DNA of 64,000 nt, from positions 1-64,000 of the forward strand of contig JBDRRP010000087.1 in the NCBI GenBank assembly GCA_043825735.1, given 5' to 3'. Positions 4,164 through 49,715 of this stretch are shown here, piece after piece (positions within the stretch are counted from its first letter, which is position 1; every line of letters begins with the position of its first letter). This stretch comes from Pseudomonadota bacterium (GTDB lineage: Bacteria > Desulfobacterota > Desulfobacteria > Desulfobacterales > JBDRRP01). Below the pieces are notes generated by a model that was given only the letters and a program-made list of their open reading frames with translations, had not been told where the DNA came from and did not search any database. The position numbers and the translations under genes were made by a program.

Positions 4164-4439
4164 TTTCGCAAAGCCGCCAAGATAGCAAAATTAATGCAAT
4201 TAATATTGATGGAACTGAAAAAAGTCTTCGCAACTATAGCTGCCATTCCGAGGAGCGGTCTCCGCTCTTCGATCCACGCACCCAGGGCCTGCGACAAGGA
4301 AGCCCAATAAAATGAAATCTTATGTGATTTTGTACCCAGTGGCGATCCCTCACTACGCTCGGGATGACATCGAAAGACTTTTACGAGGCTGTCAATACAA
4401 ATAACGTTTCCTTGGCGTCCTTGGCGCCTTGGCGAGAAA
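4164..4439. repeat. Nested palindromic repeat: CGCAAAG-core arms enclosing a shell element enclosing a REP doublet
   Basis: Arms 4164-4190 / 4411-4439; shell ttga..aaaaagtc 4206-4226 / gacttttacgag..tcaa 4376-4395; inner tgccattccgaggagc 4241 .. gatccctcactacgctcgggatgaca 4369. Confidence 0.75.
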
Positions 4440-4477
4440 ATCCTGTTTTACGGGTTTGCCTTTTTGGGGAGGTCGAT

Positions 4478-5857
4478 ATCAAAGGCTTTGTCGTGGCGGG
4501 CACCGGCAGCGGTGTCGGTAAAACCACCATTTCACTGGGGCTCATGGCGGCGCTAAAGCGCCGGGGGCTTTCGGTGGCGCCGTTCAAGGTGGGGCCCGAT
4601 TTCATCGATCCGGGCCATCACAGCCGGGTGTGCGGGGTTGCCAGCTGCAACCTGGACGGGTGGATGCTGAGTGAAGCCTTCAACCGCAGGACCTTTTTTA
4701 AAAATGCCGCCGATGCCGATGTGGCCGTGGTCGAAGGAGTGATGGGGCTCTTTGACGGCTATGACGGGAAAAGCGAGGCCGGCAGCACCGCCCAGATGGC
4801 CAAATGGCTGGGACTGCCGGTGGTTCTGGCGGTGAACGCACGGAGCATGGCCCGCAGCGCTGCGGCCCTGGTGCAAGGATTTGAGCGTTTTGACCCGGAT
4901 CTCAAATTTGCCGGCGTGGTGTTCAATCAGGTGGGCAGCGACACGCATGTGAGATACCTGCGGGAGGCCCTGGACGGGAACGCGGCCATGCCCTGTCTGG
5001 GCGGAATTGCCCGAAGCGCCGAGATTGCCATGCCCGAGCGGCACCTGGGACTGGTGACGGCCGATGATCATCCGCTCAGCACCGATGGCGTGAACCGCCT
5101 GGCCGATCTCATCGAAAATAGCCTGGATGTGGACGCGCTCTTGGCCGGATTGCCGGAATTACCGATGGCGGCCGCAGCGCGGTCGTTGACGACCCGCGAC
5201 CAACGGGCAGTGGTGGCCGTGGCCCGGGATGCGGCATTTTGTTTTTATTACCCAGAGAATATCGAACTGCTGGCGGCCGCCGGCGCCCGGATCGCGTATT
5301 TTTCGCCGCTCACAGATTCGGCTTTGCCGAAGGACAGTAGTGGGATTTATCTGGGCGGCGGATACCCCGAGCTCCATGCGCAGGCGCTGGCGGAAAACAG
5401 TGCCATGCGAACCGCCGTGGCGGACGCGTCAGCAGTCGGGATGCCCGTTTACGCTGAGTGCGGCGGATTCATGTATCTATGCCGGGAGTTGACGGATACC
5501 GAAGGGCGGCGCCACCCCATGTGCGGCTGCTTTCCATTTGAGGCACGCATGAGCGGCCGGCTCAGATCCCTGGGCTATCGTGAGGTTACCTGCACGACCG
5601 ACACCCTGGTGGGCGCGGCCGGGACGGTGATCCGGGGGCACGAATTTCATTATTCCGAAGCTGACACGCCGCCTGGGGTGTGGGCCAGCGATTACCGGCT
5701 GTCAGCACGCTCGGGCAACCATGTGACCAACGAAGGCTACCGGGTGGCGAACACCCTCGGCAGCTACGTACACCTGCATTTCGGCAGCCGGCCGGATGCG
5801 GCCGAAACATTTGTCAGCCGCTGTGAAGCATGGCAGCGGCAAGGAACCATTTCATGA
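4478..5857 (+). CDS. cbiA: Cobyrinate a,c-diamide synthase
   Basis: GSGVGKTT, FKVGPDFIDP, VEGVMGLFDG, PERHLGL, YAECGG, GHEFHYS; probable start is ATC after GGAGGT (ORF-track ATG 4364 lies in a repeat). Confidence 0.95.
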   Translation: MKGFVVAGTGSGVGKTTISLGLMAALKRRGLSVAPFKVGPDFIDPGHHSRVCGVASCNLDGWMLSEAFNRRTFFKNAADADVAVVEGVMGLFDGYDGKSEAGSTAQMAKWLGLPVVLAVNARSMARSAAALVQGFERFDPDLKFAGVVFNQVGSDTHVRYLREALDGNAAMPCLGGIARSAEIAMPERHLGLVTADDHPLSTDGVNRLADLIENSLDVDALLAGLPELPMAAAARSLTTRDQRAVVAVARDAAFCFYYPENIELLAAAGARIAYFSPLTDSALPKDSSGIYLGGGYPELHAQALAENSAMRTAVADASAVGMPVYAECGGFMYLCRELTDTEGRRHPMCGCFPFEARMSGRLRSLGYREVTCTTDTLVGAAGTVIRGHEFHYSEADTPPGVWASDYRLSARSGNHVTNEGYRVANTLGSYVHLHFGSRPDAAETFVSRCEAWQRQGTIS

Positions 5858-6474
5858 AACCCGAGGACATCGAGAAACAAAGCTTTGCCATCATCGACGC
5901 CGAGGCCGGCGATCACGGCTTTTCACCGGAGGCGTGGCCCCTGGTGCGCCGGATGATTCACACCTCCGCCGATTTTGAATACCTAAAGACCGTGCGGATT
6001 CATCCCGACGCCATCGCAGCGGGAATCGGCGCCATCCGCAGCGGTCAGCCCCTGTTCACCGACACCCACATGGCCCGCATGGGCATCAGCCGGGCGTTGC
6101 TGGCCGATACGGGCGCCGCGGTGACCTGTCTTATCACCGATTCGGAAGTGGTGCTGCAGGCCAAGAAAAACGGCACCACCCGGGCCCTGGCTGCGGTGGA
6201 TGCGGCAGCCGAGCACATGGACGGCGGCATTTATGTGGTGGGCAACGCCCCCACGGCGCTCTTGCGGCTCATCGAACACATCAGTGCCGGCCGGGTCACA
6301 CCGGCGTTGGTGATCGGACTGCCGGTGGGATTTGTCAATGCCGCCGAATCCAAGGCGGCGCTGCTTGAAACCGATATTCCTTATATTACCAACGTGGGAC
6401 GAAAGGGCGGCTCGAATGTGGCCGCCAGTGTGGTGAACGCACTGGCAATCATGAGCCGTGACGCGGTGTCTTAG
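5854..6474 (+). CDS. cbiC: Precorrin-8X/cobalt-precorrin-8 methylmutase
   Basis: IE..SF.II, RMIHTSADF, GNAPTAL, PVGFVNAAESK, GRKGGS; ATGA overlap with cbiA. Confidence 0.95.
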   Translation: MKPEDIEKQSFAIIDAEAGDHGFSPEAWPLVRRMIHTSADFEYLKTVRIHPDAIAAGIGAIRSGQPLFTDTHMARMGISRALLADTGAAVTCLITDSEVVLQAKKNGTTRALAAVDAAAEHMDGGIYVVGNAPTALLRLIEHISAGRVTPALVIGLPVGFVNAAESKAALLETDIPYITNVGRKGGSNVAASVVNALAIMSRDAVS

Positions 6475-6479
6475 AAAAC

Positions 6480-6615
6480 TTGATAAACTTGTAAAAAGGA
6501 ATTTTCTCGCAAAGGCGCAAAGTACGCCAAGAAAAACATATTTAACATCAGTTTGTCAGCTTTGAGATCGCTGCGGCTTTGCGAGAGATTCAGACTTTTT
6601 TTACGGTATTTTCAA
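6480..6615. repeat. Shell + CGCAAAG-core palindromic element
   Basis: ttga..gtaaaaag / gactttttttacgg..tcaa shell around tctcgcaaaggcgcaaagtacgccaag .. gcggctttgcgaga. Confidence 0.8.
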
Positions 6616-6633
6616 CCTGAAGGCGTGTAAACC

Positions 6634-7371
6634 ATGAATACCCAAAAAACCGGAACCCTGTACGGTATCGGCGTCGGTCCGGGCGATCCGGACCTGATCA
6701 CCGTCAAGGCGGTTCGAATCCTTGGCAACGTGGATGTCATTTTCGCGGCATCCTCCACCAAGAACCGGCACAGCCAGGCGGTGAATATCGCCAGCGCGCA
6801 CATTCCGGCCTCGGCCACCGTGCACCTGCTGAGCTTTCCCATGTGCAGCGACCCTGAGGAACTGGCCGGCGCCCGCCGGGCCAACGCCAGGGAGATCATC
6901 GCGGCGCTCCGGACCGGTAAGGACGCCGCCTTTCTCACCCTGGGCGATCCGCTCACGTACTCCACGTTCGGCTACGTGCTCAAATACGTCAAGGAAATGG
7001 CCCCGGAGCTAACCGTGGTATCGGTTCCCGGGATCACCTCCTACCAGGCGGCGGCGGCCCGGGTGAACCAGCCCCTGGTGGAGGGAAACGAGTCGCTGCT
7101 GGTGATGAGCGGTGTCAATGGCGGTGCGGCTTATCAGGGTATTTCGCCCGAACCGGAAAATCTCGTTTTTCTCAAAGCCTACCGCGGCGCGGGCGACATC
7201 GCCCGGGCGCTGGAGGCGGGCGGGCGCACCAAGGGCAGCATCGCCATCACCAACTGCGGTCTTGAAAACGAAGAAGTGGTCTCGGACATCAGTCGCTTCA
7301 AGGAAACGCCCCCTGGGTACTGGACCCTGATCATATCCAAAAAACCCGCCCCCAACGGTGCGGGGGAGTAG
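6634..7371 (+). CDS. cbiL: Precorrin-2/cobalt-factor II C20-methyltransferase
   Basis: GTLYGIGVGPGDPDLITVKA, FLTLGDPLTYSTF, VPGITS. Confidence 0.93.
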   Translation: MNTQKTGTLYGIGVGPGDPDLITVKAVRILGNVDVIFAASSTKNRHSQAVNIASAHIPASATVHLLSFPMCSDPEELAGARRANAREIIAALRTGKDAAFLTLGDPLTYSTFGYVLKYVKEMAPELTVVSVPGITSYQAAAARVNQPLVEGNESLLVMSGVNGGAAYQGISPEPENLVFLKAYRGAGDIARALEAGGRTKGSIAITNCGLENEEVVSDISRFKETPPGYWTLIISKKPAPNGAGE

Positions 7372-7384
7372 GGAATTCACGGAT

Positions 7385-7415
7385 AAGGGTTCAAGGGTTC
7401 GAGGGGGCGAGTGGG
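7385..7415 (+). repeat. G-rich 8-bp-period repeat (family D)
   Basis: aagggttcaagggttcgagggggcgagtggg. Confidence 0.75.
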
Positions 7416-7454
7416 AAACTCCAAAAAGACAATGCCATCCGTGAAGATACAATA

Positions 7455-8558
7455 ATGGCCCGCGCTACCGGAAAACGACTGAAATCGGGGTTCACCACCG
7501 GCACCGCGGCGGCCGCCGCCTTCAAGGCAGCGCTGGCTCTGGCACTTGACGGAACGGCGCCGGAATCGGTGCGTATCGATTTTCTCAGTGAGGGGCACGT
7601 GGTCATCCCGGTCCACCGGCATGGAAAAACCGGGGACGGACGCGTTTTCGCCACGGTGATCAAGGATGCCGGAGACGATCCGGATGTGACCCACCAGGCT
7701 GAAATCGGGGTGCGCCTCAGGCTGCGTGCGGACGGCACAGATCCAGCCATCACCATCGCTTCCGGCGAGGGGGTGGGAACGGTGACAAAACCCGGTCTTG
7801 GTCTGGGCATCGGGGCGCCGGCCGTGAACCCGGGTCCCCGGAAAATGCTGGCCATCGTTTTGGCGGAGATTTCGGCCACAGCGGGCAGAACGCTTGCCGC
7901 CGACGTGGAAATTTTTGTCCCCCGGGGCGCGGAACTGGCCGGCCACACCCTCAACGCCCGGCTGGGAATACTGGGGGGTATCAGCATCCTGGGCACCACG
8001 GGTATTGTCCGGCCCCTGTCCCACGAGGCCTATGTGGCCACTGTGCGAGCCGCATTGGGCGTAACCGCCGCCATGGGACAGCGCCGGGTGGTACTCACGA
8101 CCGGTCGGCGGACCGAGCGTTTCGCCCAGATGCGGTGGCCCGGATTGGCGCCCGAGGCCGTGGTGCAGATCGGTGATTACTTCGAGCAGTCACTGGCCCT
8201 GACCGCGGCGGCGGGTATTGCCGAGGCCGTTCTGGCCGTGATGTTCGGAAAGGCGCTGAAAATGGCCCAGGGCAAAGCCCACACCCATGCGGCCAAGGCG
8301 GCCTTGGGACTCGACCGACTGGGCCGATGGACCGTCGAGAAAACCGGTGACGCCGCTTTGGGCGCGCGCATCGGTGCGGCAAACACGGCCAGGGAGGCAT
8401 TCGATATTCTCCGGATCGATGCGCCCGTGATGCTCGCCGGTGTGGGCAAGCGAATGGTGGCTGCCGGCCGCGCATTTGCCGGACCTACGGTGCGTGTGAG
8501 CGGGATTTTATTCGACTATGACGGCCATCCCGTATGGGAATCGGAGGAAATCAGATGA
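7455..8558 (+). CDS. cbiD: Cobalt-precorrin-5B C1-methyltransferase
   Basis: LKSGFTTGTAA, KDAGDDPDVTH, TLNARLGILGGISILGTTGIVRP. Confidence 0.96.
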   Translation: MARATGKRLKSGFTTGTAAAAAFKAALALALDGTAPESVRIDFLSEGHVVIPVHRHGKTGDGRVFATVIKDAGDDPDVTHQAEIGVRLRLRADGTDPAITIASGEGVGTVTKPGLGLGIGAPAVNPGPRKMLAIVLAEISATAGRTLAADVEIFVPRGAELAGHTLNARLGILGGISILGTTGIVRPLSHEAYVATVRAALGVTAAMGQRRVVLTTGRRTERFAQMRWPGLAPEAVVQIGDYFEQSLALTAAAGIAEAVLAVMFGKALKMAQGKAHTHAAKAALGLDRLGRWTVEKTGDAALGARIGAANTAREAFDILRIDAPVMLAGVGKRMVAAGRAFAGPTVRVSGILFDYDGHPVWESEEIR

Positions 8559-8592
8559 GTGTCCGAATTTTACCATTTGCGGATGGATACCG

Positions 8593-9828
8593 ATGAATAC
8601 CCCCGTCACGATCATCGGCATGGGCATGTCCCCGGCGGATCTCACCGCGCGGCACCGGGAACTCATCGCGGCGGCGGACCTCCTGGTGGGAGGACGACGG
8701 CACCTGGCGGCATTCGACGACCTGCCCTGCGAAAAAGTGGTCATTGCCGCCCCGCTGACGGCCCTGTTCGAGCAGCTTCGCCGGCGGGGGGAGGCCAGGG
8801 TGGTGGTGCTGGCATCGGGAGATCCGCTCTATTACGGCATCGGCACGGCCCTTACCGCGGCACTGGGCCCGGACGCCGTGGTGGTCTATCCCAACGTCAC
8901 CGCCGTGGCCGCGGCCTTTTCGCGGATCCGCATCCCCTGGCAGGATGCCGGCGTGGTGAGCCTTCACGGCAGAGACGGCGGGCTTGACCGCTTGCCGGAA
9001 GCCCTGGCAGTGCATCCCCATGTGGCGGTGTTTACGGATCCTGCCAACGGCCCGGCCGCGGTGGCGGCATGGCTGATCGCCAATAATCTGGGGGGCCTTC
9101 GCCTGTGGGTTTTTGAACAAATGGGAGATCCTGCTGAACGGGTCACCTGTGAAACGGCCGCTGCGGTTGCTGCCGGCGCCTTTGCCGAGCCCAATTTGGT
9201 GGTCATCGAAAGCGGCGTGGCCCAACTACCGGAATCTTCGGCCATGAGCCGCCCAGACGCTGCCTATACCAGCGACGGCGGCCTCATCACCAAGCGTGAG
9301 GTGCGCGCCGTGGGCCTCTCGCTATTGGAATTGTCCAGAAGGCAGGTGGTCTGGGACCTGGGGGCGGGCAGCGGGGCTGTGGCCGTTGAGGCGGCTGCAC
9401 TGGTGGCGCCGGGCCGGGTGTTTGCCGTTGAGCGGAATCCGCAACGGGTAGAAATGATTGCCGAAAACCGGCGCCGTTTCAGGGCGGACAACCTGACACC
9501 GATCACCGGCGAGCTGCCTGACGCCATGGGCCCGCTGCCGGATCCCGACGCTGTGTTCGTGGGCGGCGGCGGGGCGCATCTTTCAGAGATCATCGCCGGC
9601 GCGGCCGCGCGACTTCGCCGCGGCGGACGGCTGGTGGTCAGCGCTGTGATGCTGGGCAGCGTGGAGACGGCCCTTCGTGCCATGGATGCGGCCGGCATGA
9701 CGCCCGAAGTCACCCAGGTGCAGATCAGCCGGGGCGTTTCCATCGCCGGGAGCCGGCGACTGGAAGCGCTCAATCCGGTATGGCTCGTCCACGGCGCAAA
9801 ACCGGTTGCGGAGACGGACAATGGATAA
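8593..9828 (+). CDS. cbiET: Fused precorrin-6Y C5,15-methyltransferase (decarboxylating) CbiE/CbiT
   Basis: VLASGDPLYYGIG, SLHGR; ITKREVR, WDLGAGSG, PDAVFVGGG, ALNPV. Confidence 0.95.
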   Translation: MNTPVTIIGMGMSPADLTARHRELIAAADLLVGGRRHLAAFDDLPCEKVVIAAPLTALFEQLRRRGEARVVVLASGDPLYYGIGTALTAALGPDAVVVYPNVTAVAAAFSRIRIPWQDAGVVSLHGRDGGLDRLPEALAVHPHVAVFTDPANGPAAVAAWLIANNLGGLRLWVFEQMGDPAERVTCETAAAVAAGAFAEPNLVVIESGVAQLPESSAMSRPDAAYTSDGGLITKREVRAVGLSLLELSRRQVVWDLGAGSGAVAVEAAALVAPGRVFAVERNPQRVEMIAENRRRFRADNLTPITGELPDAMGPLPDPDAVFVGGGGAHLSEIIAGAAARLRRGGRLVVSAVMLGSVETALRAMDAAGMTPEVTQVQISRGVSIAGSRRLEALNPVWLVHGAKPVAETDNG

Positions 9829-10612
9829 GCACGTGGTTCATTTCGTGGGTGCCGGTCCCGGCGATCCGGAGCTTATCACGGTGCGCGGGCGGCGGCTCCT
9901 TGAAGCGGCGGACCTGGTGGTCTACGCCGGCTCTCTGGTGCCCGAGGCCGTGCTTCAGTGGACCCGCGACGATGCCCGGCGCCTCGACAGCGCCGGCATG
10001 ACCCTGGAGGACATTGTTGCGGCCATGGTTACGGCCTGCCGCCGCGGCGAGCGGGTGGTGCGGCTTCACACCGGCGACCCGAGCCTTTACGGCGCCATTT
10101 TCGAGCAGATGGTTCAATTGGATGCCGCCGGTGTAAGCTATGCCGTCACCCCCGGGGTCACCGCCGCTTTTGCCGCGGCTGCGGCGCTGCAGATGGAATA
10201 CACCCTGCCCGAGCGCTGTCAGACCCTCATTTTGACGAGGATGGCAGGGCGCACGCCGGTGCCGGAAACCGAGTCGCTGGCGTCCCTGGCCGCCCACCGG
10301 GCCGCCATGGCCATTTATCTCAGCCTGAAACAGGTGGCGGCCGTGGCGGACATCCTCGCCGGCGCCTATGGCCCGGACGCCCCCTGCGCCGTGGCCTACC
10401 GGGTGAGCCACCCGGATGAAAAGCTCGTGTGCTGCCGCATTGCGGATCTGGTGGCGCGCGTTGCGGCCGAAGGCATCACCCGCCAGGCCCTGATTCTGGT
10501 GGGCGCCGCCCTGGGGGCACGAAGCGCCTGCAACGCCGCTTCGTCCCGGCTCTACGATGCGGGGTTCAGTCATGGATTCAGAAAGGCCGCGGTCGATGCC
10601 GATACCCCCTGA
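9821..10612 (+). CDS. cbiF: Precorrin-4 C11-methyltransferase
   Basis: VHFVGAGPGDPELIT, YAGSLV, RLHTGDPSLYGAI.EQ, SRLYD. Confidence 0.96.
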   Translation: MDKHVVHFVGAGPGDPELITVRGRRLLEAADLVVYAGSLVPEAVLQWTRDDARRLDSAGMTLEDIVAAMVTACRRGERVVRLHTGDPSLYGAIFEQMVQLDAAGVSYAVTPGVTAAFAAAAALQMEYTLPERCQTLILTRMAGRTPVPETESLASLAAHRAAMAIYLSLKQVAAVADILAGAYGPDAPCAVAYRVSHPDEKLVCCRIADLVARVAAEGITRQALILVGAALGARSACNAASSRLYDAGFSHGFRKAAVDADTP

Positions 10613-11699
10613 GATGGTTCCGCCGCCGGCGGAAAAGCCGCTGGCCGTCTGGGCCGTTACCGCCAACGGGGTCGGCATTGCCCAGCGTCTCAGGGCTGCC
10701 TTCCCTGGGATGCGGGGACTTTGTCTCGAACGGTTCGTCGGCACCACCGGGTTTTCAGGGGTGGATTCTCTGATACCTGCCGTAAGGGAGCGTTTCGGCG
10801 ACTTTACGGGCCATATCTTTGTCATGGCCGCCGGCATCGTGGTCCGGGCCATCGCCCCGGTCATCGGTCACAAGGCCACCGATCCGGCGGTGGTGGTGGT
10901 GGACGATACGGGCCGGTTCGCCGTGAGCCTGCTTTCCGGTCACATGGGCGGGGCCAACCGGCTGGCAAGAGAAGTGGCCGCAGTGCTGGGGGCCGCGCCG
11001 GTCATCACCACCGCCACCGATGTGAACCAACTGCCGGCGGTCGATACCATTGTCGTCGAAGCGGGGATGCGGATCGCCAACCCGACGGCCATCCGGGAGG
11101 TCAATGCGGCGGTTCTGGCCGAGCGACCCGTGCCGTTGTTCGATCGCTGGGGACTGCTCGCAGGCCGCCTGCCCACAGACCGGTTTCCGCCGGTAGTCCC
11201 GACAGCGGTGTTCGCGCCGTGGCCCGTAAACACCCTGGCCGCCGTAAAAGGACCGGCGGTCCTGGTGGACGACGCCGGACTGTGCCTGCCGCCGTCGGTG
11301 CTGGCGGTAAGGCCGCCCACCCTGGTGGTGGGTATCGGGTGCAATCGGGGAACCCCGGAGGCGGAGATCGAAGACCTTTTGCGGGAAACCTTGAGCCTGG
11401 CGGATCTGGCCGTGGAAAGCATCTGCGCGCTGGCATCGGTGGATCTCAAGGCCGATGAGGTTGGGCTTCTGGCCCTGGGGCGGCGCCTGGGAGTGCCGGT
11501 TGTCTTTTTTACCAAAACTGAACTGGCCCGGGTGTCGGATGTGCCTAATCCTTCACCAGCAGTGGCCGAGCACATCGGAGTCGACAGCGTATGCGAAGCA
11601 GCAGCGATCCTGGGTGCGGACAGCGGACGGCTGATCGTGCCCAAACGGAAAACCAGAGCCGTCACCGTGGCGATCGCCCGAAAGTCCTCCATATCGTAG
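10596..11699 (+). CDS. cbiG: Cobalt-precorrin-5A hydrolase
   Basis: MAAGIVVR, DPAVVVVD, LLSGH.GGAN, VITTATD, GIGCNRG, SVCEAAA. Confidence 0.95.
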   Translation: MPIPPEMVPPPAEKPLAVWAVTANGVGIAQRLRAAFPGMRGLCLERFVGTTGFSGVDSLIPAVRERFGDFTGHIFVMAAGIVVRAIAPVIGHKATDPAVVVVDDTGRFAVSLLSGHMGGANRLAREVAAVLGAAPVITTATDVNQLPAVDTIVVEAGMRIANPTAIREVNAAVLAERPVPLFDRWGLLAGRLPTDRFPPVVPTAVFAPWPVNTLAAVKGPAVLVDDAGLCLPPSVLAVRPPTLVVGIGCNRGTPEAEIEDLLRETLSLADLAVESICALASVDLKADEVGLLALGRRLGVPVVFFTKTELARVSDVPNPSPAVAEHIGVDSVCEAAAILGADSGRLIVPKRKTRAVTVAIARKSSIS

Positions 11700-12472
11700 G
11701 CATCGGGCCAGGGCACGTCACTCACCTTTCCAGGCGCGCCGCCGAGGTGCTGGCCGCCGTGGACACCGTGGCGGGCTACACCACCTACATCGATCTCATC
11801 CGGCCCCTGGTGGCGGAAAAAACCATCGTCAGCACCGGTATGATGAAAGAGGTGGACCGGGTGGACGCGGCGCTTGCCGCCGCCATTGTCGGAAACGCCA
11901 CCGCCATTGTTTCCAGCGGCGATCCGGGCATTTACGCCATGGCCGGTCTGGTGCTGGAAATGTGCCGCGACCGGGGTATCCCCATCGCCCCCATGCGGGA
12001 AATGGCCACGGCACCGGCGGGTGACCCGAGGCTGTTCATCGAAGTGGTGCCCGGCATTCCGGCACTGGCTTCGGGAGCGGCGCTGCTGGGCGCGCCTTTG
12101 ACTCACGATTTTGCCACCATCAGTCTGAGCGATCTTTTAACCCCGTGGGAGACCATCGAAAAACGGCTGGACGCAGCGGCTGCCGCTGATTTTGTCATCG
12201 TGCTCTACAACCCCAAGAGCAAGCGCCGCAGCGGCCATTTGGCCCGCGCCGTCGAGATCGTCATGGCCCACCGCGCCCCGGACACCCCCACCGGCATCGT
12301 CACCGCCGCCATGCGGGAGGGGCAGCGGGTGGAACTGACCACCCTGGACAGACTGGCCGAGGCCGAGGTGGACATGCAGACCACGGTGTTCATCGGCAGC
12401 AGCGCATCGGTGCGTTACCGCGATTTCATGATCACCCCGCGCGGGTACGGGGAAAAATATCAGCTGGCGTAA
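11591..12472 (+). CDS. cbiH: Precorrin-3B C17-methyltransferase (true start unclear; possibly reached by -1 frameshift from cbiG)
   Basis: LHIVGIGPG, GYTTY, SSGDPGIYAMA, GAPLTHDFATISLSDLLTPW, LYNP; homology begins ~11681. Confidence 0.93.
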   Translation: MRSSSDPGCGQRTADRAQTENQSRHRGDRPKVLHIVGIGPGHVTHLSRRAAEVLAAVDTVAGYTTYIDLIRPLVAEKTIVSTGMMKEVDRVDAALAAAIVGNATAIVSSGDPGIYAMAGLVLEMCRDRGIPIAPMREMATAPAGDPRLFIEVVPGIPALASGAALLGAPLTHDFATISLSDLLTPWETIEKRLDAAAAADFVIVLYNPKSKRRSGHLARAVEIVMAHRAPDTPTGIVTAAMREGQRVELTTLDRLAEAEVDMQTTVFIGSSASVRYRDFMITPRGYGEKYQLA

Positions 12473-12475
12473 CTA

Positions 12476-12531
12476 AAGGGTTCAAGGGTTCGAGGGTTCG
12501 AGGGGCCAAGGGGCCGAGGGGGCGAGTGAAA
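12476..12531 (+). repeat. G-rich 8-bp-period repeat (family D)
   Basis: aagggttcaagggttcgagggttcgaggggccaaggggccgagggggcgagtgaaa. Confidence 0.85.
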
Positions 12532-19838: not shown

Positions 19839-19900
19839 CGACAAACTCGTAAAAGGCCTAACTCACCACAGAGGACGCAGAGAGCGCAGAGATAACTTTA
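19839..19900. repeat. Left half of shell + CGCAGAG-core element
   Basis: gacaaactcgtaaaagg..caccacagaggacgcagagagcgcagagataac, the core identical to 21011-21043. Confidence 0.8.
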
Positions 19901-20847: not shown

Positions 20848-20981
20848 TTGATAAATCTGTAATTAGTGGCAATTTCCCGCAAAGCTGCAAAGATCGCAAA
20901 GTTAACAAATTGCTATTAATAATGTTTTTCTTGGCGTGCTTGGCGTCTTTGCGAGGAAATTGCTTTTTGCGGAGCTGTCAA
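20848..20981. repeat. Shell + CGCAAAG-core palindromic element
   Basis: ttga..cccgcaaagctgcaaagatcgcaaag [AT-rich] cttggcgtgcttggcgtctttgcgag..gctttttgcggagctgtcaa. Confidence 0.8.
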
Positions 20982-20983
20982 GG

Positions 20984-21118
20984 TTGACAGTCACGTAAAA
21001 AGTCTGAAATCACCACAGAGGACGCAGAGAGCGCAGAGATAACTTAATAATTATTCAATATATTCTCTGCGGCCCTCTGCGGTCGCTGTGGTTCAAAATC
21101 TCTTTTTACGGTTATATC
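20984..21118. repeat. Shell + CGCAGAG-core palindromic element
   Basis: ttgacagtcacgtaaaaagtctgaaatcaccacagaggacgcagagagcgcagag .. ctctgcggccctctgcggtcgctgtggt..ctttttacgg; close reverse complement of 49579-49715. Confidence 0.88.
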
Positions 21119-26517: not shown

Positions 26518-26577
26518 ACCACGAAGAACACGAAGGTCACGAAGAAAACCTTAGTGTGCTTCGTGAACTTCGTGGTT
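26518..26577. repeat. CACGAAG-core palindromic element (family F)
   Basis: accacgaagaacacgaaggtcacgaag..cttagtgtgcttcgtgaacttcgtggt. Confidence 0.82.
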
Positions 26578-26669
26578 CAATATCGCTTTACGAAAAGACA
26601 AACTGGAACTTTCTGCATCAGCGCATTAACGAATCAGTCACACAACCGATACCGGAGGGGGTTGCCAAC

Positions 26670-36051: not shown

Positions 36052-36145
36052 TTGATTTCCTTTGCCTGGATGATAAACAAGACCCGGTGGGTGACGGTAT
36101 CGCAAGGCGTGCCGCCTGCCGGTGTTTTTTTTCAAAGCGTCAACA

Positions 36146-36281
36146 TTGATAACGCCGTAAAAAGTCATTTTAAACCGCAGAGCGCACAGAGAACCGAAGA
36201 GTATATACTGAGAATTGACAAGTTATCTCTGCGTTCTCTGCGTCCTCTGTGGTGATTTCGGACTTTATAAAAAGCCATCAA
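36146..36281. repeat. Shell + CGCAGAG-core palindromic element
   Basis: ttgataacgccgtaaaaagtc..accgcagag..gttatctctgcgttctctgcgtcctctgtggtgatttcggacttt..catcaa. Confidence 0.85.
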
Positions 36282-36352
36282 CAAGAGCATTGGACCAGCG
36301 CATCAGGCGCTGAAACCGACTGACGGATGCCCAGACTGGAGGAGGACTGCTC

Positions 36353-38421: not shown

Positions 38422-38553
38422 TTAATAGTCATGTAAAAAGTAATTTTGAACCGCAGAGATCGCAGAGAAACGCAGAGAATGTGTTGATAATTTATGGTTT
38501 GTCTCTGTGGTCTCTGCGCCCTCTGTGGTGATTTCTTTTTTAGGAGTTTTCAA
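38422..38553. repeat. Shell + CGCAGAG-core palindromic element
   Basis: gtaaaaagt..accgcagagatcgcagagaaacgcagag [AT] tctctgtggtctctgcgccctctgtggtg..tttttaggagttttcaa. Confidence 0.82.
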
Positions 38554-40187: not shown

Positions 40188-40205
40188 TACGGGAGGCGGC
40201 GCGGT

Positions 40206-43054: not shown

Positions 43055-43164
43055 ACCCGCTCATCGGCGGCGGGGGCACGGACGCTCCTTGCGCGTTTAG
43101 CCGTTTTCCGGTTTTGATGAAGAAATAGGGGCGGTGGTCATGACAATTGAAAGGATTTGAAACG

Positions 43165-43560
43165 ATGATGAAGATTTTGGTGGGGTTTGACAGAAGCAAC
43201 ACGGCCAAGGCCGCCCTGGATGTGGCAATCAAATACGCCGGCACCATGGGCGGAGAACTCATGGTGGTGAGCTCCCTGGTAGAGGGTAAGGACGACAACC
43301 TTCATGACATCGGTAACGCCGAGTCGGATCTTGACGCGGCCAAGGCCATGGCCACCAAAGCGGGCGTGCCGTGCACGACCCATCTGCTCATCCGGGGACT
43401 GCAGCCGGGAGAGGACCTTGTCCGATTTGCAGGAGAGCAGGGGGCCGATCTGGTGGTGGTGGGTATCCACCGGCGCTCCAAGGTGGGCAAACTCCTCATG
43501 GGGTCGACGGCCCAGTTCGTGATCCTCAAATCGCCGTGCCCGGTGCTGACGGTAAAATAG
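43165..43560 (+). CDS. Universal stress protein
   Basis: KILVGFD.S, ADLVVVG..RRSKVGKLLMGSTAQ.VIL..PCPVLTVK. Confidence 0.93.
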   Translation: MMKILVGFDRSNTAKAALDVAIKYAGTMGGELMVVSSLVEGKDDNLHDIGNAESDLDAAKAMATKAGVPCTTHLLIRGLQPGEDLVRFAGEQGADLVVVGIHRRSKVGKLLMGSTAQFVILKSPCPVLTVK

Positions 43561-43566
43561 AAAAGC

Positions 43567-43675
43567 AGGGTTCGAGGGTTCCAGGGGCCAAGGGTTCGAG
43601 GGGGGAAAAAACACACTCAATGATGGCTGGCTGGGGGTTTTGGGGTTCACTCGAACCCTTGAATCCTTGAACCCT
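43567..43675. repeat. Family D G-rich 8-bp repeat as an inverted pair
   Basis: agggttcgagggttccaggggccaagggttcgagg (43567-43601) .. ttcactcgaacccttgaatccttgaaccct (43646-43675). Confidence 0.82.
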
Positions 43676-43689
43676 CACAGGTCTTTGGC

Positions 43690-43784
43690 GGACAACCGGA
43701 GGCGTAGCGGCGCAACGTCGAGGATTGCAAAAGGAGCGAGCACGCCGCCGGGGGCCAAAAGATGCCATCTGTGGGCGGGCACTA
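43690..43784. mobile_element. Diverged partial family-M MITE
   Basis: accggaggcgtagc..tcgaggatt..gggccaaaagatgcc..tgggcgggcacta aligns with 63632-63720. Confidence 0.7.
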
Positions 43785-45161
43785 GTTGTTGAGGCTGTTA
43801 ATCGGCGCGGGAATGAGACCGCCGCGTCGTATAAAAAGATTGTCGCCCTTCTCGTTGTTGACCGCCATGATGACCGATTGCCCCAGCAGGCCGCCGAAAA
43901 AGGCAAACTCGCCGGCTTTTTTGCCGGGGACGGGGATGATGCGGGTGGCCGTGGTTTTTCTGTTGATGACGCCGATGGCCATTTCGTCGGCGATGATGCC
44001 GGAAAGCGTTTCGGCGGTCGTATCGCCGGGGATGGCTACCATGTCCAGCCCGACCGAGCAGACACTGGTGATGGCTTCCAGTTTTTCGATGGTCAGGTGC
44101 CCGGCTTCGGCGGCGGCTGAAATATTGAGGTCTTCACTGACAGGGATAAAGGCACCGCTGAGCCCTCCGACGTGAGAGCTGGCAAATGCGCCCCCTTTTT
44201 TTACGGCGTCGTTGAGCAGGGCCAGTGCGGCCGTCGTGCCGGGCACGCCGATGGCCTTCAGGCCCAGGCTCTGGAAAATCTCGCCCACGCTGTCGCCCAC
44301 GTTGGGGGTGGGCGCCAGGCTCAGATCCACCGCTCCGAACTGGATCTTGAGAGAATCTGCCACTTCACGGCCAATGAGCTCACCCACGCGGGTCACCTTA
44401 TAGGCCGTGTGCTTGATCAACTCCGATATCTGGCCCAGGTCAAGAGACGGTGTGTTGGCCAGTGCCCGCTGGATGGCCTTGTTCACCACACCGGGGCCGC
44501 TGACACCGACGTTGATGACCGCATCCGGCTCACCCACCCCCAGGTAGGCGCCGGCCATGAATGGAATGTCCTGGGGAATGTTGGCGAAGATGCACAATTT
44601 GGCGCAGGCCAACCCGTCTTTGTCCGCCGAGAGCGCCGCCGCTTGTTTGATGATCTGCCCCATGAGCACCACCGCATCGATGTTAATGCCCGCCTTGGTG
44701 GAGGCCACGTTCACCGAAGCGCAGACCCGCTCGGTCTGCGCCAAAGCCCGGGGGATGGCTTCGATGAGGGAGCGGTCTCCGTTGGCGATGCCTTTTTCCA
44801 CGAGGGCCGAAAATCCACCGATAAAATCCACATGCACCGCCTCTGCGGCGCGGTTGAGGGTATGGGCGATGTCCACCATGTCGTCGGCGGAGAAGGGGGC
44901 GGCGGCTACCGCGATGGGACTTACCGAAATACGTTTGTTCACCACGGGGATCCCGTATTTTTCGCCGACCCGGTCGCAGATGTCTACCAGGGGGGCTGCC
45001 AGTGTGGTGATTTTGGTGTAAATGTTGGCCTTGAACCGCTCGATGTCGTCGCTGGCGCAGTCAAAGAGATTGATACCGAGGGTGACGGTACGAAGGTCCA
45101 GATGTTCATTCCTGACCATCTCAAGTGTGCTCAGTATCTCATTTTCGTTAAGCATTTTCAC
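43782..45161 (-). CDS. DUF711/UPF0210 (PFL-like superfamily) protein
   Basis: LD.RTVTLGI.L.DC, NKRISVSP, PFMAGA, NVGVSGPGVV, DLSLAPTP, VGGLSGAFIPVSED, CSVGLDM. Confidence 0.93.
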   Translation of the reverse strand: MKMLNENEILSTLEMVRNEHLDLRTVTLGINLFDCASDDIERFKANIYTKITTLAAPLVDICDRVGEKYGIPVVNKRISVSPIAVAAAPFSADDMVDIAHTLNRAAEAVHVDFIGGFSALVEKGIANGDRSLIEAIPRALAQTERVCASVNVASTKAGINIDAVVLMGQIIKQAAALSADKDGLACAKLCIFANIPQDIPFMAGAYLGVGEPDAVINVGVSGPGVVNKAIQRALANTPSLDLGQISELIKHTAYKVTRVGELIGREVADSLKIQFGAVDLSLAPTPNVGDSVGEIFQSLGLKAIGVPGTTAALALLNDAVKKGGAFASSHVGGLSGAFIPVSEDLNISAAAEAGHLTIEKLEAITSVCSVGLDMVAIPGDTTAETLSGIIADEMAIGVINRKTTATRIIPVPGKKAGEFAFFGGLLGQSVIMAVNNEKGDNLFIRRGGLIPAPINSLNN

Positions 45162-45197
45162 AGTTTCCTTGCAGCGGTCGCTGCGGGGGACCAGCCG

Positions 45198-45752
45198 TTA
45201 CAGCCGGTTAAGGGTTTCGAAGATTTTTCGGTGTTGGATGCTGATTTCCAGATCCAGGTCAGAGGCCTTCGACCGAAGTTCGGCGTAAAGGGACCGGTGA
45301 TCGGTGTCATTGGGGATGTCCACTTCATAAATCATGAAGTTGTCGTTGGGATCGTTGCCGCCTTTAAACACTGCACGCAGGTTTGTGACATTGACACCGT
45401 GCTTGGCGATGATGGCCGTGATGGACGCTACCAGCCCCTTGCGGTCAGGGCCGCGGGTGGTGAGCACGAAGGGTTCGGCGTTGACGAAGCGGGGGTCGGG
45501 CTTGCGGGCGTCGAGGCGTTTGATGGTGACGTGCTGCCCCAGCGGTTTGAGCCCCAGACGGAGTGCATTGCCGAGGCAGTCGAGACCGCATTCGACGGGT
45601 ATGGTGGCAATGAATATTCCCGAAAATTCCGATTGCAAAATGGTCTGATCCACATTCTCGATGTTGCAGCCCTGTTCGAACAGGATCCGTGACACCGCCG
45701 CGATGATCCCCGGCCGGTCCTGGCCCAATACTGATATAACGACTTTGTTCAT
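45198..45752 (-). CDS. Double ACT-domain protein (GcvR-like)
   Basis: VISVLGQDRPGII..NI and GPDRKGLV..NV; ends IF..LNRL; upstream of DUF711. Confidence 0.88.
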   Translation of the reverse strand: MNKVVISVLGQDRPGIIAAVSRILFEQGCNIENVDQTILQSEFSGIFIATIPVECGLDCLGNALRLGLKPLGQHVTIKRLDARKPDPRFVNAEPFVLTTRGPDRKGLVASITAIIAKHGVNVTNLRAVFKGGNDPNDNFMIYEVDIPNDTDHRSLYAELRSKASDLDLEISIQHRKIFETLNRL

Positions 45753-45954
45753 CTCTATGCTCCATTAAAACGCCGTGCCTGTAACAGCCATCGCTGCTGC
45801 AGGCCTCGGTAAATTGGGAATCAAAAGCTTTTATCAGAACCGAAGACCGTGTCAAGGAACTTGACGCCGTCTTCGGTTCTTGAATCGATGGGGGCCTTTA
45901 TGCTAATTAGTGCCCAACCGCAAACGGTCATGACGAACTGAGCATGGAATCAAC

Positions 45955-46809
45955 ATGGAGCAGACGCCGCTGATCCGATTGATGAGGGAACACCGCACGC
46001 TGTTTATCGTCGTGGCCGTGGGGCTGCTGCTTTTGGAACTGGAAATCTTCGCCATTGCCGTGACCAAGTCCGGCCGAGAGTCCTTCCTTCAGGTGCTCGA
46101 CACCAGCGGCAATGTTTTGTATGAAACCGACGGCGAGCAGCTCAGCGACTTCAACAAGTACTATTTCGAAAAAACGTTCGGCCCCCTGGAGCATTTTCAA
46201 AAACGGCTCCAGACCCGTGAGCGCCCCTTTCCCTTCAGAGCCTGGTTCGCCGCCGCCGTGGGTGTCCCGGTCGGGGTGATATTGCTTATCGGGTTCGTGT
46301 TCAGAGCCTATGTCACCATGGTGTTCGGCCACCGAAAAACCCAGGAAACGGCGGAAGATGCACCGGCTCCGGTCGGCAGCCGTCTCGGTAGTTTCGACAA
46401 TCTGGTGCGCACGGTGAGCCAGTATAACATCTTCATTATCGGCTTCATCGTTTTCATCGGCGTTCTGGGTATTTGGTATCTACCTAATATGCTTAATGAA
46501 ATCGGTAAAATGGGGGTTGAGACCATTGCCAGATACAAGTGGGTATCCATCTCCGTTGTGGCGGTGATGCTGGGGCTCGTCATCTGGGTGATCTATTTGC
46601 GCTACCTGCTGGCCCGGAAAGTCATAGACAGCCAGACGGAGGTCGAAAAATACCGGCTTCAGTTGCAGTTGGACCCCTCGCTGCGAAATATGCCGGTGCT
46701 GGAGCACCGCCCCGAGGCGCCCATAGCCGTGGCCGCCTTGCCTCCCGGCGACGAACCGATACCGGAGCGGCCGGATCGGGTTAAATGGAACGGCGTCACC
46801 GATCATTGA
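45955..46809 (+). CDS. Hypothetical membrane protein (~4 TM)
   Basis: Long ORF with host-like codon usage and four hydrophobic segments. Confidence 0.75.
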   Translation: MEQTPLIRLMREHRTLFIVVAVGLLLLELEIFAIAVTKSGRESFLQVLDTSGNVLYETDGEQLSDFNKYYFEKTFGPLEHFQKRLQTRERPFPFRAWFAAAVGVPVGVILLIGFVFRAYVTMVFGHRKTQETAEDAPAPVGSRLGSFDNLVRTVSQYNIFIIGFIVFIGVLGIWYLPNMLNEIGKMGVETIARYKWVSISVVAVMLGLVIWVIYLRYLLARKVIDSQTEVEKYRLQLQLDPSLRNMPVLEHRPEAPIAVAALPPGDEPIPERPDRVKWNGVTDH

Positions 46810-46921
46810 CGAGCCGGGTGCGGGAATGCCGGTGAATACCCGCCGCGGTCGTGCTCTATGAGACGCCCATCGCCCGGTCGGGTTGACGCCCGCATCGGTT
46901 CTGCTCAGCGGAAGACGCTTT

Positions 46922-48220
46922 ATGCGCATTGCCACCACCCACAAAAACACTGATTTTGACGGCCTGGCGTCGGTTATGGCGGCCACGCTTATTTTCCCCG
47001 ATACCGTAGCCGTCATCCCCACAGTGGTGAACCCCAATCTCAAGGGGTTTCTTTCCATCCACAAAGATTTGTTCAGTATCTGGTCACCGGCAGAGGTAGA
47101 CCTTGAAGTGGTGAGCGAGCTCATCGTGGTGGACGTCAACCGGTGGGACCGGCTGGACAGTCTTCAGCCCTTGAGAGATCGCAAAGAGCTCACCATCCGT
47201 CTATGGGACCACCACGAGTCGGAGGGCGATATCGACGCCCAGCATGTCTGCCAGGAGCCCGTGGGGGCGACGGTCACCCTCATGATGCGCATGATTCGGG
47301 AGCGGCGGTTGCTGCTGACGCCGATTCAGGCCACCCTGTTTCTGGCCGGTATCTACGAGGATACCGGCAATCTCACTTTCAGCGCCACCCAGGCCGAAGA
47401 TGCCTATGCCGCGGCATACCTGCTGGAGCGCAAGGCTGATCTTGGCATCCTCAACAGTTTTCTGAAGCCGGCATATGGGGCCAAGCAAAAGGAAGTGCTT
47501 TACGAGATGCTTCAGGACGCCTCGCGGGAAACCATCAACGGGCACACCGTGAGCATCCGTCACATGCGTATTTCAGGTCATATCGACCGGTTGGCGGTGG
47601 TGGTGCGGATGTTTCGGGAAATCATGAACGTAGAGGCCGCATTCGGCCTGTTTACCGACGTGGACAAAAAACGCACCATGATCATCGCCCGCAGCGATGT
47701 GGAAGACCTGGATGTGGGCACGATGATGAAGAGCCTTGGCGGCGGGGGGCACCCCGGTGCGGGCAGTGCTGTGGTCAAAAACGCCAACCCGGAAGCCGTG
47801 GCCGATCTGCTCCGGGAACTTCTCGCCGGAAACCAGCAGGCGTCGGTGCAGATCAGCGACCTCATGTCGTTTCCGGTGTTCAGCATCCACGCCGACACCT
47901 CCATGCGGGAAGCGGCCGCAATGCTTCGGGAAAAGGGATGCACCGGCGTGCCGGTAGTGGACGGCGAAGGCATCGTCGGCATCCTCAGCCGCCGGGATTT
48001 TCGCAAAATCAAGAATGAAAAACGCCTTGATGCGCCGGTCAAAGCCTTTATGAGCAAATCCGTTGTGACCATCAGCCCAGGCAGAAGCCCTATGTACGCG
48101 GCCCGACTGATGGTCAAGCACGACATCGGCCGTCTTCCTGTGGTCGAAGACGGCAAACTCATCGGTATTATCACCCGCTCTGATGCCATGATGTATTTTT
48201 ACGACCTGCTGCCGGACTGA
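46922..48220 (+). CDS. DHH/DHHA1 phosphoesterase with C-terminal CBS pair
   Basis: H.N.DFDG, VVD, WDHH, GIYEDTG, GGGGHPGA, two CBS domains. Confidence 0.9.
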   Translation: MRIATTHKNTDFDGLASVMAATLIFPDTVAVIPTVVNPNLKGFLSIHKDLFSIWSPAEVDLEVVSELIVVDVNRWDRLDSLQPLRDRKELTIRLWDHHESEGDIDAQHVCQEPVGATVTLMMRMIRERRLLLTPIQATLFLAGIYEDTGNLTFSATQAEDAYAAAYLLERKADLGILNSFLKPAYGAKQKEVLYEMLQDASRETINGHTVSIRHMRISGHIDRLAVVVRMFREIMNVEAAFGLFTDVDKKRTMIIARSDVEDLDVGTMMKSLGGGGHPGAGSAVVKNANPEAVADLLRELLAGNQQASVQISDLMSFPVFSIHADTSMREAAAMLREKGCTGVPVVDGEGIVGILSRRDFRKIKNEKRLDAPVKAFMSKSVVTISPGRSPMYAARLMVKHDIGRLPVVEDGKLIGIITRSDAMMYFYDLLPD

Positions 48221-48226
48221 TAAGAG

Positions 48227-48266
48227 AAGGGTTCGAGGGGCCAAGGGGTCAAGGATTCAAGTGAAA
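48227..48266 (+). repeat. G-rich 8-bp-period repeat (family D)
   Basis: aagggttcgaggggccaaggggtcaaggattcaagtgaaa. Confidence 0.8.
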
Positions 48267-48293
48267 CACCAAACAACATCACAACGGATAGCC

Positions 48294-49565
48294 ATGACAG
48301 ATTATCCCAATGAGAAGCTTCGTCGGCTGATGGAAAAGGGCGTGCGGATACCGACTCCCGAGAGTGTGGACATCGGCGATGAGGTGTCGGTGGATCGGAT
48401 TTCAGGGCAGGGCGTAACGATTCACGCCGGCAGCCGCATCCGGGGCGCCGGCACCCTGATCATGGCCGGTGCGCGCATCGGGGAGGAGGCGCCGGCCACT
48501 GTGGACAACTGCCACATCGGTCCGGAGGTGCAGCTCAAGGGCGGTTTTTATTCAGGATCCGTATTTTTGAAAGGCGCGGCTGTCGGGTCATCGGCGCACA
48601 TCCGCCCCGGGACCATTTTTGAGGAAAAGGCCTCGGCCGCGCATGCTGTCGGCCTCAAGCAGAGCATTCTTTTTCCTTATGTAACTATCGGAAGTTTAAT
48701 TAATTTTTGTGATATCTTGATGTCCGGTGGCACCGGCCCGAAACACCACAGCGAGGTGGGCAGTTCTTATATTCATTTCAATTTTACGCCCAATCAGGAC
48801 AAGGCCACGGCCTCGCTGCTCGGCGACGTTCCCCAGGGGGTCATGCTGGACCAGGATCCCATTTTTCTGGGAGGGCAGGGCGGTCTGGTAGGCCCCTGCA
48901 ACCTGGCCTTCGGCACCGTCATCGCCGCCGGCACCATTTACCGCAAGGATGAAAGCCGCCCGGGTCGACTTCTCACCGCCGCGACCGGCCGTGGCGGCAG
49001 CATCCCCTACACGGCCGGCATTTACCGCAGCGTCAAACGGGTGGTGGCCAACAACATGAACTATCTGGCCAATCTCATAGCCCTGGGGCAGTGGTACCGC
49101 CACGCTCGAAAACGGTTCATCGGTGCTGAGTTCAGCGAAGCGCTCTGGGAAGGGCTGATCGCTGCACTGGATGCAGATACGGCGGCTCATGTCAGACAGT
49201 TCGAGGGGTTTGTGGCTAAACTGACGGGTTCCGTTGATAAACTTAGACAGGGAATCATCACGACGGCAGGGGACCACCTCATTGCCCAACACGAAGCGGT
49301 GATCGACCGGTGGCCAGAAATGTTATCAATAATAAATGAGCTGCGTGCCGCCCCCGGCGACGTGACGCTTCAGGAACGGTTTTTGGAAGCCCTGTCCCGG
49401 CGTATTGCGCGATCGGAAGGGGACTACCTGAGCGCTATTCACGCCTTGGACGAACAAGAAAAGGAATCGGGACGGCGATGGCTGGCGGGAATCGTCGACC
49501 AAGTGGTGGCACCCCTTGAAGCGCTGCTCCCCGCCCTTTTCGGGTCTCCGAAAAAACAAATCTGA
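48294..49565 (+). CDS. GlmU-related left-handed beta-helix protein without a pyrophosphorylase domain
   Basis: LMEKGVRI..P.SV.I, AHIRPG, hexapeptide repeats, NF...DK; directly upstream of glmM. Confidence 0.7.
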   Translation: MTDYPNEKLRRLMEKGVRIPTPESVDIGDEVSVDRISGQGVTIHAGSRIRGAGTLIMAGARIGEEAPATVDNCHIGPEVQLKGGFYSGSVFLKGAAVGSSAHIRPGTIFEEKASAAHAVGLKQSILFPYVTIGSLINFCDILMSGGTGPKHHSEVGSSYIHFNFTPNQDKATASLLGDVPQGVMLDQDPIFLGGQGGLVGPCNLAFGTVIAAGTIYRKDESRPGRLLTAATGRGGSIPYTAGIYRSVKRVVANNMNYLANLIALGQWYRHARKRFIGAEFSEALWEGLIAALDADTAAHVRQFEGFVAKLTGSVDKLRQGIITTAGDHLIAQHEAVIDRWPEMLSIINELRAAPGDVTLQERFLEALSRRIARSEGDYLSAIHALDEQEKESGRRWLAGIVDQVVAPLEALLPALFGSPKKQI

Positions 49566-49578
49566 CGGCTAATTAAGA

Positions 49579-49715
49579 TTGATGAAACCGTAAAAAGTGA
49601 TTTTTAACCACAGAGACCGCAGAGGAACGCAGAGAATATTATGAATAATTAATAAGTTATCTCTGCGCTCTCTGCGTCCTCTGTGGTGATTTCAGACTTT
49701 TTACGAGTTTGTCAA
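49579..49715. repeat. Shell + CGCAGAG-core palindromic element
   Basis: ttgatgaaaccgtaaaaagtg..accacagagaccgcagaggaacgcagag [AT] ctctgcgctctctgcgtcctctgtggtg..gactttttacgagtttgtcaa. Confidence 0.9.

Follow-up and report, generated by a model that had tools for sequence, protein, structure and literature searches.

In plants, the Stowaway and Tourist miniature inverted-repeat transposable elements (MITEs) are cross-mobilised by Tc1/mariner and PIF/Harbinger transposases. They have only the terminal repeats and the duplication in common with the autonomous element, and their interiors resemble neither that element nor one another. The Correia (Neisseria), ERIC, REP/BIME and BOX repeats are intergenic sequences of about 100-150 bp that form hairpins and are often co-transcribed; BOX and BIME are built as mosaics of modules, REP depends on Y1 RAYT enzymes, and to our knowledge Correia and ERIC have no matching insertion sequence (IS) end. 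Here we describe short palindromic elements from a 64,000-nucleotide stretch of a Desulfobacterota genome (assembly GCA_043825735.1, contig JBDRRP010000087.1, positions 1 to 64,000 of the forward strand; hereafter the window), in which an inverted "shell" of about 20 bp recurred around different interiors. Very probably, the shell represented the terminal inverted repeat of an IS lineage of about 1.9 kb with an IS1182-like transposase, and the 135-bp elements were MITEs of that lineage that would be moved in trans. Unlike the plant families, which are eukaryotic, use other transposase superfamilies and make TA or TWA duplications, these elements were bacterial; unlike the Correia, ERIC, REP and BOX repeats, their ends were those of a DDE IS, and their cores were not linked to any Y1 gene.

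The IS1182 family (for example IS1272 of staphylococci) resembled the system described here in having a single DDE transposase with DUF772, DDE_Tnp_1 and DDE_Tnp_1_6 domains, a length of about 1.9 kb and terminal inverted repeats. According to PMC5678879, IS1272 targets inverted-repeat structures, and the ISfinder curators are quoted there as stating that palindromes are targeted by some IS1182 family members, a preference that our elements shared. However, IS1272 is described in that source as replacing stem-loops without duplication, whereas the elements studied here entered a short AANNTT site with a regular 6-bp duplication. IS1182-family MITEs are also listed for Methanosarcina acetivorans, with ISMac2 as the partner IS (PMC3852290). 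Those MITEs were comparable in being short (160-169 bp), multi-copy and non-autonomous, with inverted repeats matching an IS1182-family IS, but they were archaeal, had direct repeats of 4 or 0 bp and were listed there as two entries. In our case many unrelated interiors were found on one end across a bacterial phylum, with a 6-bp duplication. In the literature on MITEs of Desulfobacter-type or sulfate-reducing bacteria, and on IS1182 in connection with MITEs, target duplication or palindromes, we found no description of these elements. They were most likely elements of an ordinary kind, though unusually rich in form. Their distinguishing features were the breadth of shell conservation, the regular 6-bp palindromic duplication by which each insertion restored the target, and the occurrence of the same hairpin core in two different shells.

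The window was contig C87 of the source genome G000 (6.8 Mb, 160 contigs, 57.5% G+C). When it was searched with the pattern TTGA-N7-GTAAAAAGT, allowing up to two mismatches, we obtained 12 matches against 0.33 expected, and none of 100 shuffled sequences reached 12. The elements had been noticed earlier by a reader that saw the sequence only, and at every coordinate listed by this sequence-only reading the letters fitted its description. It had regarded the shell as an independent unit of a nameless system; that view gave way when a parent IS was recognised.

A scan of G000 for the DDE_Tnp_1 domain returned six matches, one of them on a 3-kb contig (C38). There, two inverted repeats of 22 nt (ATTGATGACCTCGCAGAAACCC and GGGTTTTTACGAGGTCATCAAT, separated by 1847 nt) surrounded one open reading frame (ORF) of 559 aa that contained the DUF772, DDE_Tnp_1 and DDE_Tnp_1_6 domains. 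Among the NCBIfam models, this ORF matched the IS1182 family transposase best (E 2e-59), with a score of 201.7 bits that lay below the cut-off of 270, and the IS ends agreed with the shell at TTGATG, TCG and TAAAAA. Long-range shell pairs of G000 (300-8000 bp) were considered as IS candidates and rejected, since they enclosed housekeeping genes (deacetylase-like, MoxR-type ATPase, response regulator, DUF362) and no transposases and represented separate elements. A self-BLAST for multi-copy segments yielded no IS family with shell ends, and in the long-read genome G041 the lone half-sites that were sampled belonged to short elements or stood as solo shells, with no IS copies among them.

Homologues of the C38 transposase (34-60% identity) were present in 21 of the 151 genomes searched from this order. 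Of the 30 homologue loci returned, 18 had the gene flanked on either side by shell matches with up to two mismatches; intact copies of the IS, which measured 1.89 kb, were those at loci L146, L147 and L156. In 17 of these 18 the shells were 1868-2095 bp apart, three of the spans taking in an adjoining short element, and the remaining loci were mostly contig-end fragments with one shell arm. Since the transposase ORF stopped 19-31 bp before the terminus in most IS copies, the repeat was part of the IS and not the remnant of a MITE surrounding it. The IS1182 model was the best match, over the full length, of all 12 further transposases tested (152-195 bits). For the 13 proteins together, it was covered from about position 30 to 487 of 488 in every case, with scores of 152-202 bits. 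Because all of them were below the 270-bit cut-off, in which they differed from the family as modelled, we assigned the transposases as IS1182-like only. The length of about 1.88-1.92 kb, the inverted repeats and the palindromic AANNTT target fitted what we take to be traits of the IS1182 family. The sequence-only reading, which could match the system to no named element, had itself named a match to the ends of a described IS or MITE as decisive against it, and at the family level IS1182 provided such a match.

The flanks of the elements provided the insertion signature. Complete elements read ...CAA-nn-[TTGA...TCAA]-nn-TTG..., with nn the same on the left and the right in 74 of 134. In a set unbiased towards the ends, where the elements were located by the inner GTAAAAAGT alone, the flanking AA was conserved like the "terminal" TT (0.83/0.69 vs 0.84/0.74), and deviations from AA or TT were mostly common to the left and right copies. 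The excess of left/right identity extended over exactly six positions (A-A-n-n-T-T) and was absent from the adjoining position on either side (n=107 in G000 and n=123 in other genomes). Insertion duplicates 6 bp of a palindromic AANNTT target. It follows that, within the shell consensus TTGAYR-NNN-YCGTAAAAAGTC, the element proper is GAYR...YRTC, and the outer TT/AA of the shell as first drawn belong to the duplication. The GA and TC termini beside the duplication rebuilt the extended target TCAANNTTGA on both sides, so that each insertion recreated the preferred site; about 40-50% of the flanks already showed TCAANNTTGA. Tandem pairs with a 2-bp spacing are explained by this property. The tandem arrangement pointed out before was confirmed in the window (20981/20984), and 24 of 26 tandem junctions in G000 had exactly 2 bp between TCAA and TTGA, that is, one common AANNTT.

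The same signature was found at the IS copies. Identical flanking 6-mers of the AANNTT type were present in 8 of 16 testable copies (AACCTT, AATCTT, AATTTT, AAGACT, AAGTTT, AATTTT, AATATT and AAAGTT), and short elements stood in tandem with IS ends, with a 6-mer in common, at two loci (L145 and L155). Together, the shell-bounded ends of the 17 full-length IS copies and the common insertion signature led us, with high confidence, to read the shell as an IS end and the 135-bp elements as its MITEs. In size and content the latter were typical: they were 131-137 bp long, carried no ORF, consisted of hairpin sequence and had terminal inverted repeats of about 18-20 bp that were kept both within G000 and across genomes. 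In keeping with the earlier proposal, the elements were non-autonomous and probably mobile, and they would most likely be moved in trans.

The scan of the 6.8-Mb genome with the shell motif, suggested by the sequence-only reading, gave 648 half-sites. There were 155 inverted pairs, and 102 of these had lengths of 130-139 bp. In addition, profiles of the two main interior types, A and B, detected 393 non-overlapping loci (236 A and 157 B), 267 of them nearly full length. Half-sites fell into classes A (259), B (122) and C (59), and 204 were assigned to none; 167 of these 204 were two-mismatch matches, some of them due to chance. The 393 A/B loci and the 59 class-C half-sites indicated a high copy number, which fitted the public sequencing runs, where source-like contigs ended at each element and depth was higher in bins with elements.

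The A and B interiors, with CGCAGAG and CGCAAAG cores respectively, had been regarded as interchangeable cargo. However, their halves co-segregated: complete elements were A1+A2 in 90 cases, B1+B2 in 27 (plus a few variants) and C+C in 13, and only two chimeras (C71:178-303 and C47:8298-8464) were found among about 150. Cargo was therefore not exchanged freely. The A and B consensus sequences could be aligned colinearly from end to end, both having similar loops and, in each arm, three heptamers laid out alike, and single-linkage clustering joined the A halves with the B halves. The two cores were thus diverged subfamilies of one MITE. On the other hand, classes C (GTCATCCCGG...), E (GTCATTCCGAGGAGC...) and D had interiors unrelated to A/B, so that several MITE families in G000 have one predicted transposase-binding end in common. 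The claim that one shell of about 20 bp surrounded unrelated interiors was therefore upheld in G000 by A/B, C, E and D, and far more so across genomes. Modularity within G000 was below what had been proposed, and overall it was above that of a single lineage. One near-empty shell of 62 bp, two arms with only 22 bp of unrelated sequence between them, was present at C81:20067-20128.

For other genomes we used the pair pattern CGTAAAAAGT-N(90-120)-ACTTTTTACG. Among 41 relatives, either close or at the level of the order, 14 had it, as did 60 of the 301 genomes sampled from the phylum, where a single genome held up to 124 copies; the reversed control pattern gave no match in either set. In public genome contigs, at least 124 stretches had the shell pair. 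Among the matches listed, nearly all came from Desulfobacterales, Desulfobacteraceae, Desulfosudaceae or Thermodesulfobacteriota metagenome-assembled genomes, and a few were labelled Nitrospirota, Thermodesulfovibrionales, Syntrophaceae or Acidobacteriota. The IS lineage is widespread in Desulfobacterales and common among sulfate-reducing Desulfobacterota. The ends were conserved even beyond the fixed pattern (TTGAYG-NNT-CGTAAAAAGTC), whereas the interiors were wholly different between genomes, including GTCATTCCGGCGAAAGCCGGAATCCAG... types, GGGAGGGG types, CACGAAG and CACAAAG heptamer types and others; many of them had no hairpin comparable to that of A/B. A common MITE type of 155 bp (L013, L017, L023, L030, L031 and many more loci in other genomes) had an internal second shell arm beside one end, with the layout ACTTTTTAC-N8-GTC, about 9 bp and then the terminal shell, and resembled a three-ended element.

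Several observations weighed against this explanation of the MITEs. The sole IS copy in G000 ended in ...CGTAAAAACCC (...AAAAACCC) and not in ...CGTAAAAAGTC, a slight difference, and its flanking 6-mers were not identical (AACATT / AATCAT). Half of the 16 testable IS copies were without identical 6-mers, and the transposase scores stayed under NCBI's cut-off, as given above. Only 4 of the 14 genomes with MITE pairs (G000, G012, G013 and G018) had a transposase homologue. Genomes G021, G023, G024 and G025 had 23, 121, 25 and 6 pairs, respectively, and no homologue, though these were drafts, in which IS copies often fail to assemble. None of 274 MITE interiors matched the subterminal 150 bp of 17 IS copies; therefore, the MITEs were not simple deletion derivatives of the IS and had only the ends in common with it. 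Finally, neither a precise empty site nor a transposition event was found in the orthologous region of G001 or in the contigs of public runs. In G001, which belongs to the same genus, an element-free spacer of about 113 bp corresponded to the MITE at 49579-49715 and the adjacent CACGAAG core of G000, and the spacers were too diverged for an exact site. On a low-depth contig of a relative (X3, depth 2.6, 85% likeness) 21 other letters replaced 36130-36293, which was too weak to count as an empty site.

If the IS transposase acts in trans and recognises the ends only, any short DNA between two such ends would be movable. New copies would then land beside old ones at the rebuilt target and produce tandem pairs with one common AANNTT. 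New interiors might arise when small repeats are nested into the AT-rich loops and parts are subsequently deleted, or by capture of filler DNA during repair.

The earlier statement that heptamer-hairpin cores also occur outside the shell was correct: 58 of 59 CACGAAG cores in G000 lacked shell 1 (the shell described so far), although their boundaries were those of the A interior (...GAAC|CAC...GTG|GTGAT...). In genome G018, CACGAAG cores did carry shell 1. About 30 of the CACGAAG cores in G000 were enclosed in a second shell, forming an element of about 187 bp with the ends TTATGCACAATTCTCAAGT... and ...ACTTGAGTTTTGTGCATAA. This second shell (CTGG-TTATGCACAATTCTCAAGT ... ACTTGAGTTTTGTGCATAA-CCAG) had 96 half-sites in G000 and also wrapped an unrelated GGGGAGGGG-rich interior of about 245 bp; examples of second-shell elements were located at C19:5339-5527, C116:311-497, C105:1339-1526, C27:78799-79044 and C93:23052-23295. 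No parent IS of the second shell was found in G000, where a 3.4-kb pair on C48 enclosed a sigma-54-type response regulator and no transposase.

Moreover, eight A/B MITEs of G000 had other small repeats inserted in their AT-rich loops (C155:15571-15898, C4:62671-63159, C22:111289-111598, C40:112258-112635, C90:33913-34202, C90:18293-18656, C89:12036-12521 and C115:11119-11451). Among the inserts were tandem repeats of the GATCGG/CGATACCGAT type, a GTGCCCATCCATAAATACC... element with TAGTTAG on its flanks and an element with a CACGGAG hairpin whose ends resembled CGCTTATGCAGAAAGCGCCAGTGG; nested small repeats were numerous in G000. These nested copies are plausible intermediates for an exchange of interiors through insertion and then deletion. 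A broader and still tentative idea is that the heptamer-hairpin core, with three repeats of about 9 bp per arm and an AT-rich loop, is a module with an evolutionary life of its own that has been placed in at least two transposon shells (the IS1182-like ends and TTATGCACAATTCTCAAGT), so that Desulfobacterota would host a combinatorial shell-and-cargo MITE ecosystem and not isolated families. If so, hairpin cargo might have an advantage with transposases that prefer, or act on, extruded palindromes, the AT-rich loops would serve as hot targets, and nested insertion followed by deletion would keep swapping the cargo.

The alternative closest to the sequence-only reading is a two-tier modular system in which the palindromes are modules of their own, repeatedly captured or wrapped by a shell that forms a separate unit, each with its own history. 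The cores outside shell 1 with A-interior boundaries, the same core type inside shell 1 in G018 and inside the second shell, the unrelated 245-bp interior of the latter, the eight MITEs with repeats in their loops, the near-empty 62-bp shell and the lack of likeness between MITE interiors and subterminal IS DNA all agreed with such a system. However, shell 1 was an IS end and not free-standing, the halves co-segregated with two chimeras in about 150 complete elements, and A and B descended colinearly from one element. Neither a capture event nor a series of intermediates nor a mechanism could be demonstrated, so that the capture of palindromes by the shell, as originally proposed, remained conjecture, and the cores had no associated REP-type transposase. 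Namely, none of the eight Y1_Tnp (RAYT) matches in the genome was flanked by cores and only one had a core within 1.8 kb, for which reason Y1 transposases as core movers, in the manner of REP/REPIN sequences with RAYT, were rejected. We therefore regarded a true two-tier system as possible but rather doubtful. Another view, a single MITE lineage whose interiors all diverged from one ancestor, was improbable: the colinear consensus, the same three-heptamer arms, the similar loops and the joint clustering spoke for it within the A/B pair, to which alone it applies, but it could not account for the unrelated interiors of C, E and D or for those of other genomes, and as a complete explanation it was refuted by them, many of the latter interiors being without a comparable hairpin.

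Two further alternatives placed the origin of the shell outside transposition by a DDE enzyme. The elements might primarily serve the host, for example by stabilising RNA, as terminators or as palindromes to which proteins bind (REP/BIME or ERIC type), with the shell as a signal at the protein or RNA level. Their hairpins folded well beyond shuffled controls (z from -2.7 to -10.1), the window elements were located between co-directional ORFs and would be co-transcribed, and GNRA-like hairpin loops were seen in many interiors of other genomes. Yet the same ends bounded a transposase gene in 17 IS copies, the target duplications had an identical form in short elements and IS copies, the interiors were not conserved between genomes, and the window elements had no Rfam match; accordingly, we considered a primary host function unlikely, while the elements may have a secondary, co-opted one. 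In the remaining alternative, a site-specific recombinase, such as a serine enzyme, would use the shells as its sites and cross over within 2 bp, and the elements would move as circles. The junction ...CATCAA-nn-TTGATG... did form a perfect palindrome of about 40 bp with a 2-bp centre, whose nn was identical in the 74 of 134 cases mentioned above. However, the direct repeat was 6 bp and not 2 bp, with deviations in the AA/TT positions common to both copies, nn was unrestricted, and the gene within these ends encoded a DDE transposase. The serine-recombinase reading of the 2-bp spacer was rejected on the six-position duplication and these common deviations, and we gave this alternative almost no credence. 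The reading of the shell as the end of an IS1182-like IS remained the preferred explanation, with mobilisation in trans as its presumed mode.

With this explanation, the individual elements of the window can be described as follows (no strand was assigned to any of them). A-type arms were CACAGAG/CGCAGAG and B-type arms were CGCAAAG/CGCCAAG; as single-stranded DNA the elements formed long hairpins. According to the ORF map, all copies were intergenic, mostly between co-directional ORFs. A B-type MITE at 6480..6615 (CGCAAAG/CGCCAAG arms, DNA fold z = -2.7) was found between two + strand ORFs. The element at 19839..19899 was a truncated A-type half with one shell arm and three heptamers. The tandem pair consisted of a B-type MITE at 20848..20981 (z = -3.6) and an A-type MITE at 20984..21118 (z = -7.2), with the 6-bp site AAGGTT common to both neighbours. 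The latter had a decayed right shell arm, as did the A-type MITE at 38422..38553 (z = -6.0); both arms deviated by more than two mismatches from the shell pattern. A further A-type MITE was intergenic at 36146..36281 (z = -3.9). The best preserved copy was the A-type MITE at 49579..49715, with both shells perfect, a 6-bp direct repeat AAGATT at each end and z = -10.1. Its duplicated AAGATT was adjoined by a CACGAAG heptamer-hairpin core at 49722..49830; like the CACGAAG core at 26518..26580, this one was truly without shell 1. The third core reported to lack a shell, at 51221, was instead an A-type copy with decayed shells (profile match 51216..51329; remnant CACTTATTGCG vs CACTTTTTACG).

The left part of the window contained a nested arrangement. 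An outer B-type MITE with decayed shells (4151..4457; nhmmer matches of the B profile at 4151-4211 and 4342-4457, confirmed by reading the sequence) had its AT-rich loop split by a 190-bp shell MITE at 4206..4395 with an unrelated interior of the GTCATTCCGAGGAGC...CTCGGGATGAC type and the flanking 6-mers AATATT / AATACA. A 157-bp relative of the inner element was present at C37:43069-43225. The insertions at 4151-4457 were preceded by a cobalamin riboswitch (RF00174, 72.9 bits, 3850-4054) and followed by a long ORF, and they separated the riboswitch from its presumed target gene. This riboswitch was the sole Rfam match in the window.

The explanation has several practical consequences. Several hundred intergenic repeats in G000, and similar ones in about one fifth of the sampled Desulfobacterota genomes, are explained by one transposase lineage, and they can be annotated by the ends GAYR-NNN-YCGTAAAAAGTC together with the 6-bp AANNTT duplication. 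The repeats break contigs and thus matter for assembly. Expression may be affected, since elements are located between presumably co-transcribed genes and in one case between a cobalamin riboswitch and its presumed gene. Moreover, with dozens of unrelated interiors, a self-recreated target and tandem arrays, the system offers natural material for studying the requirements of an IS1182-like transposase beyond the ends.

Two minor observations were made along with the elements. The eight Y1_Tnp (IS200/RAYT-like) domains of G000 were located in unusually long open frames of up to 390 aa (C86:121576-121911, C34:837-1160, C128:67-390, C136:90449-90781, C112:6284-6604 and three more). In the window, a GC-rich hairpin after an A run (aaaaaaaaggccttcggcaagggctgccgaaggcctt) was present at 51335-51375, directly downstream of the decayed A element, and it looked like an intrinsic terminator common to convergent genes.

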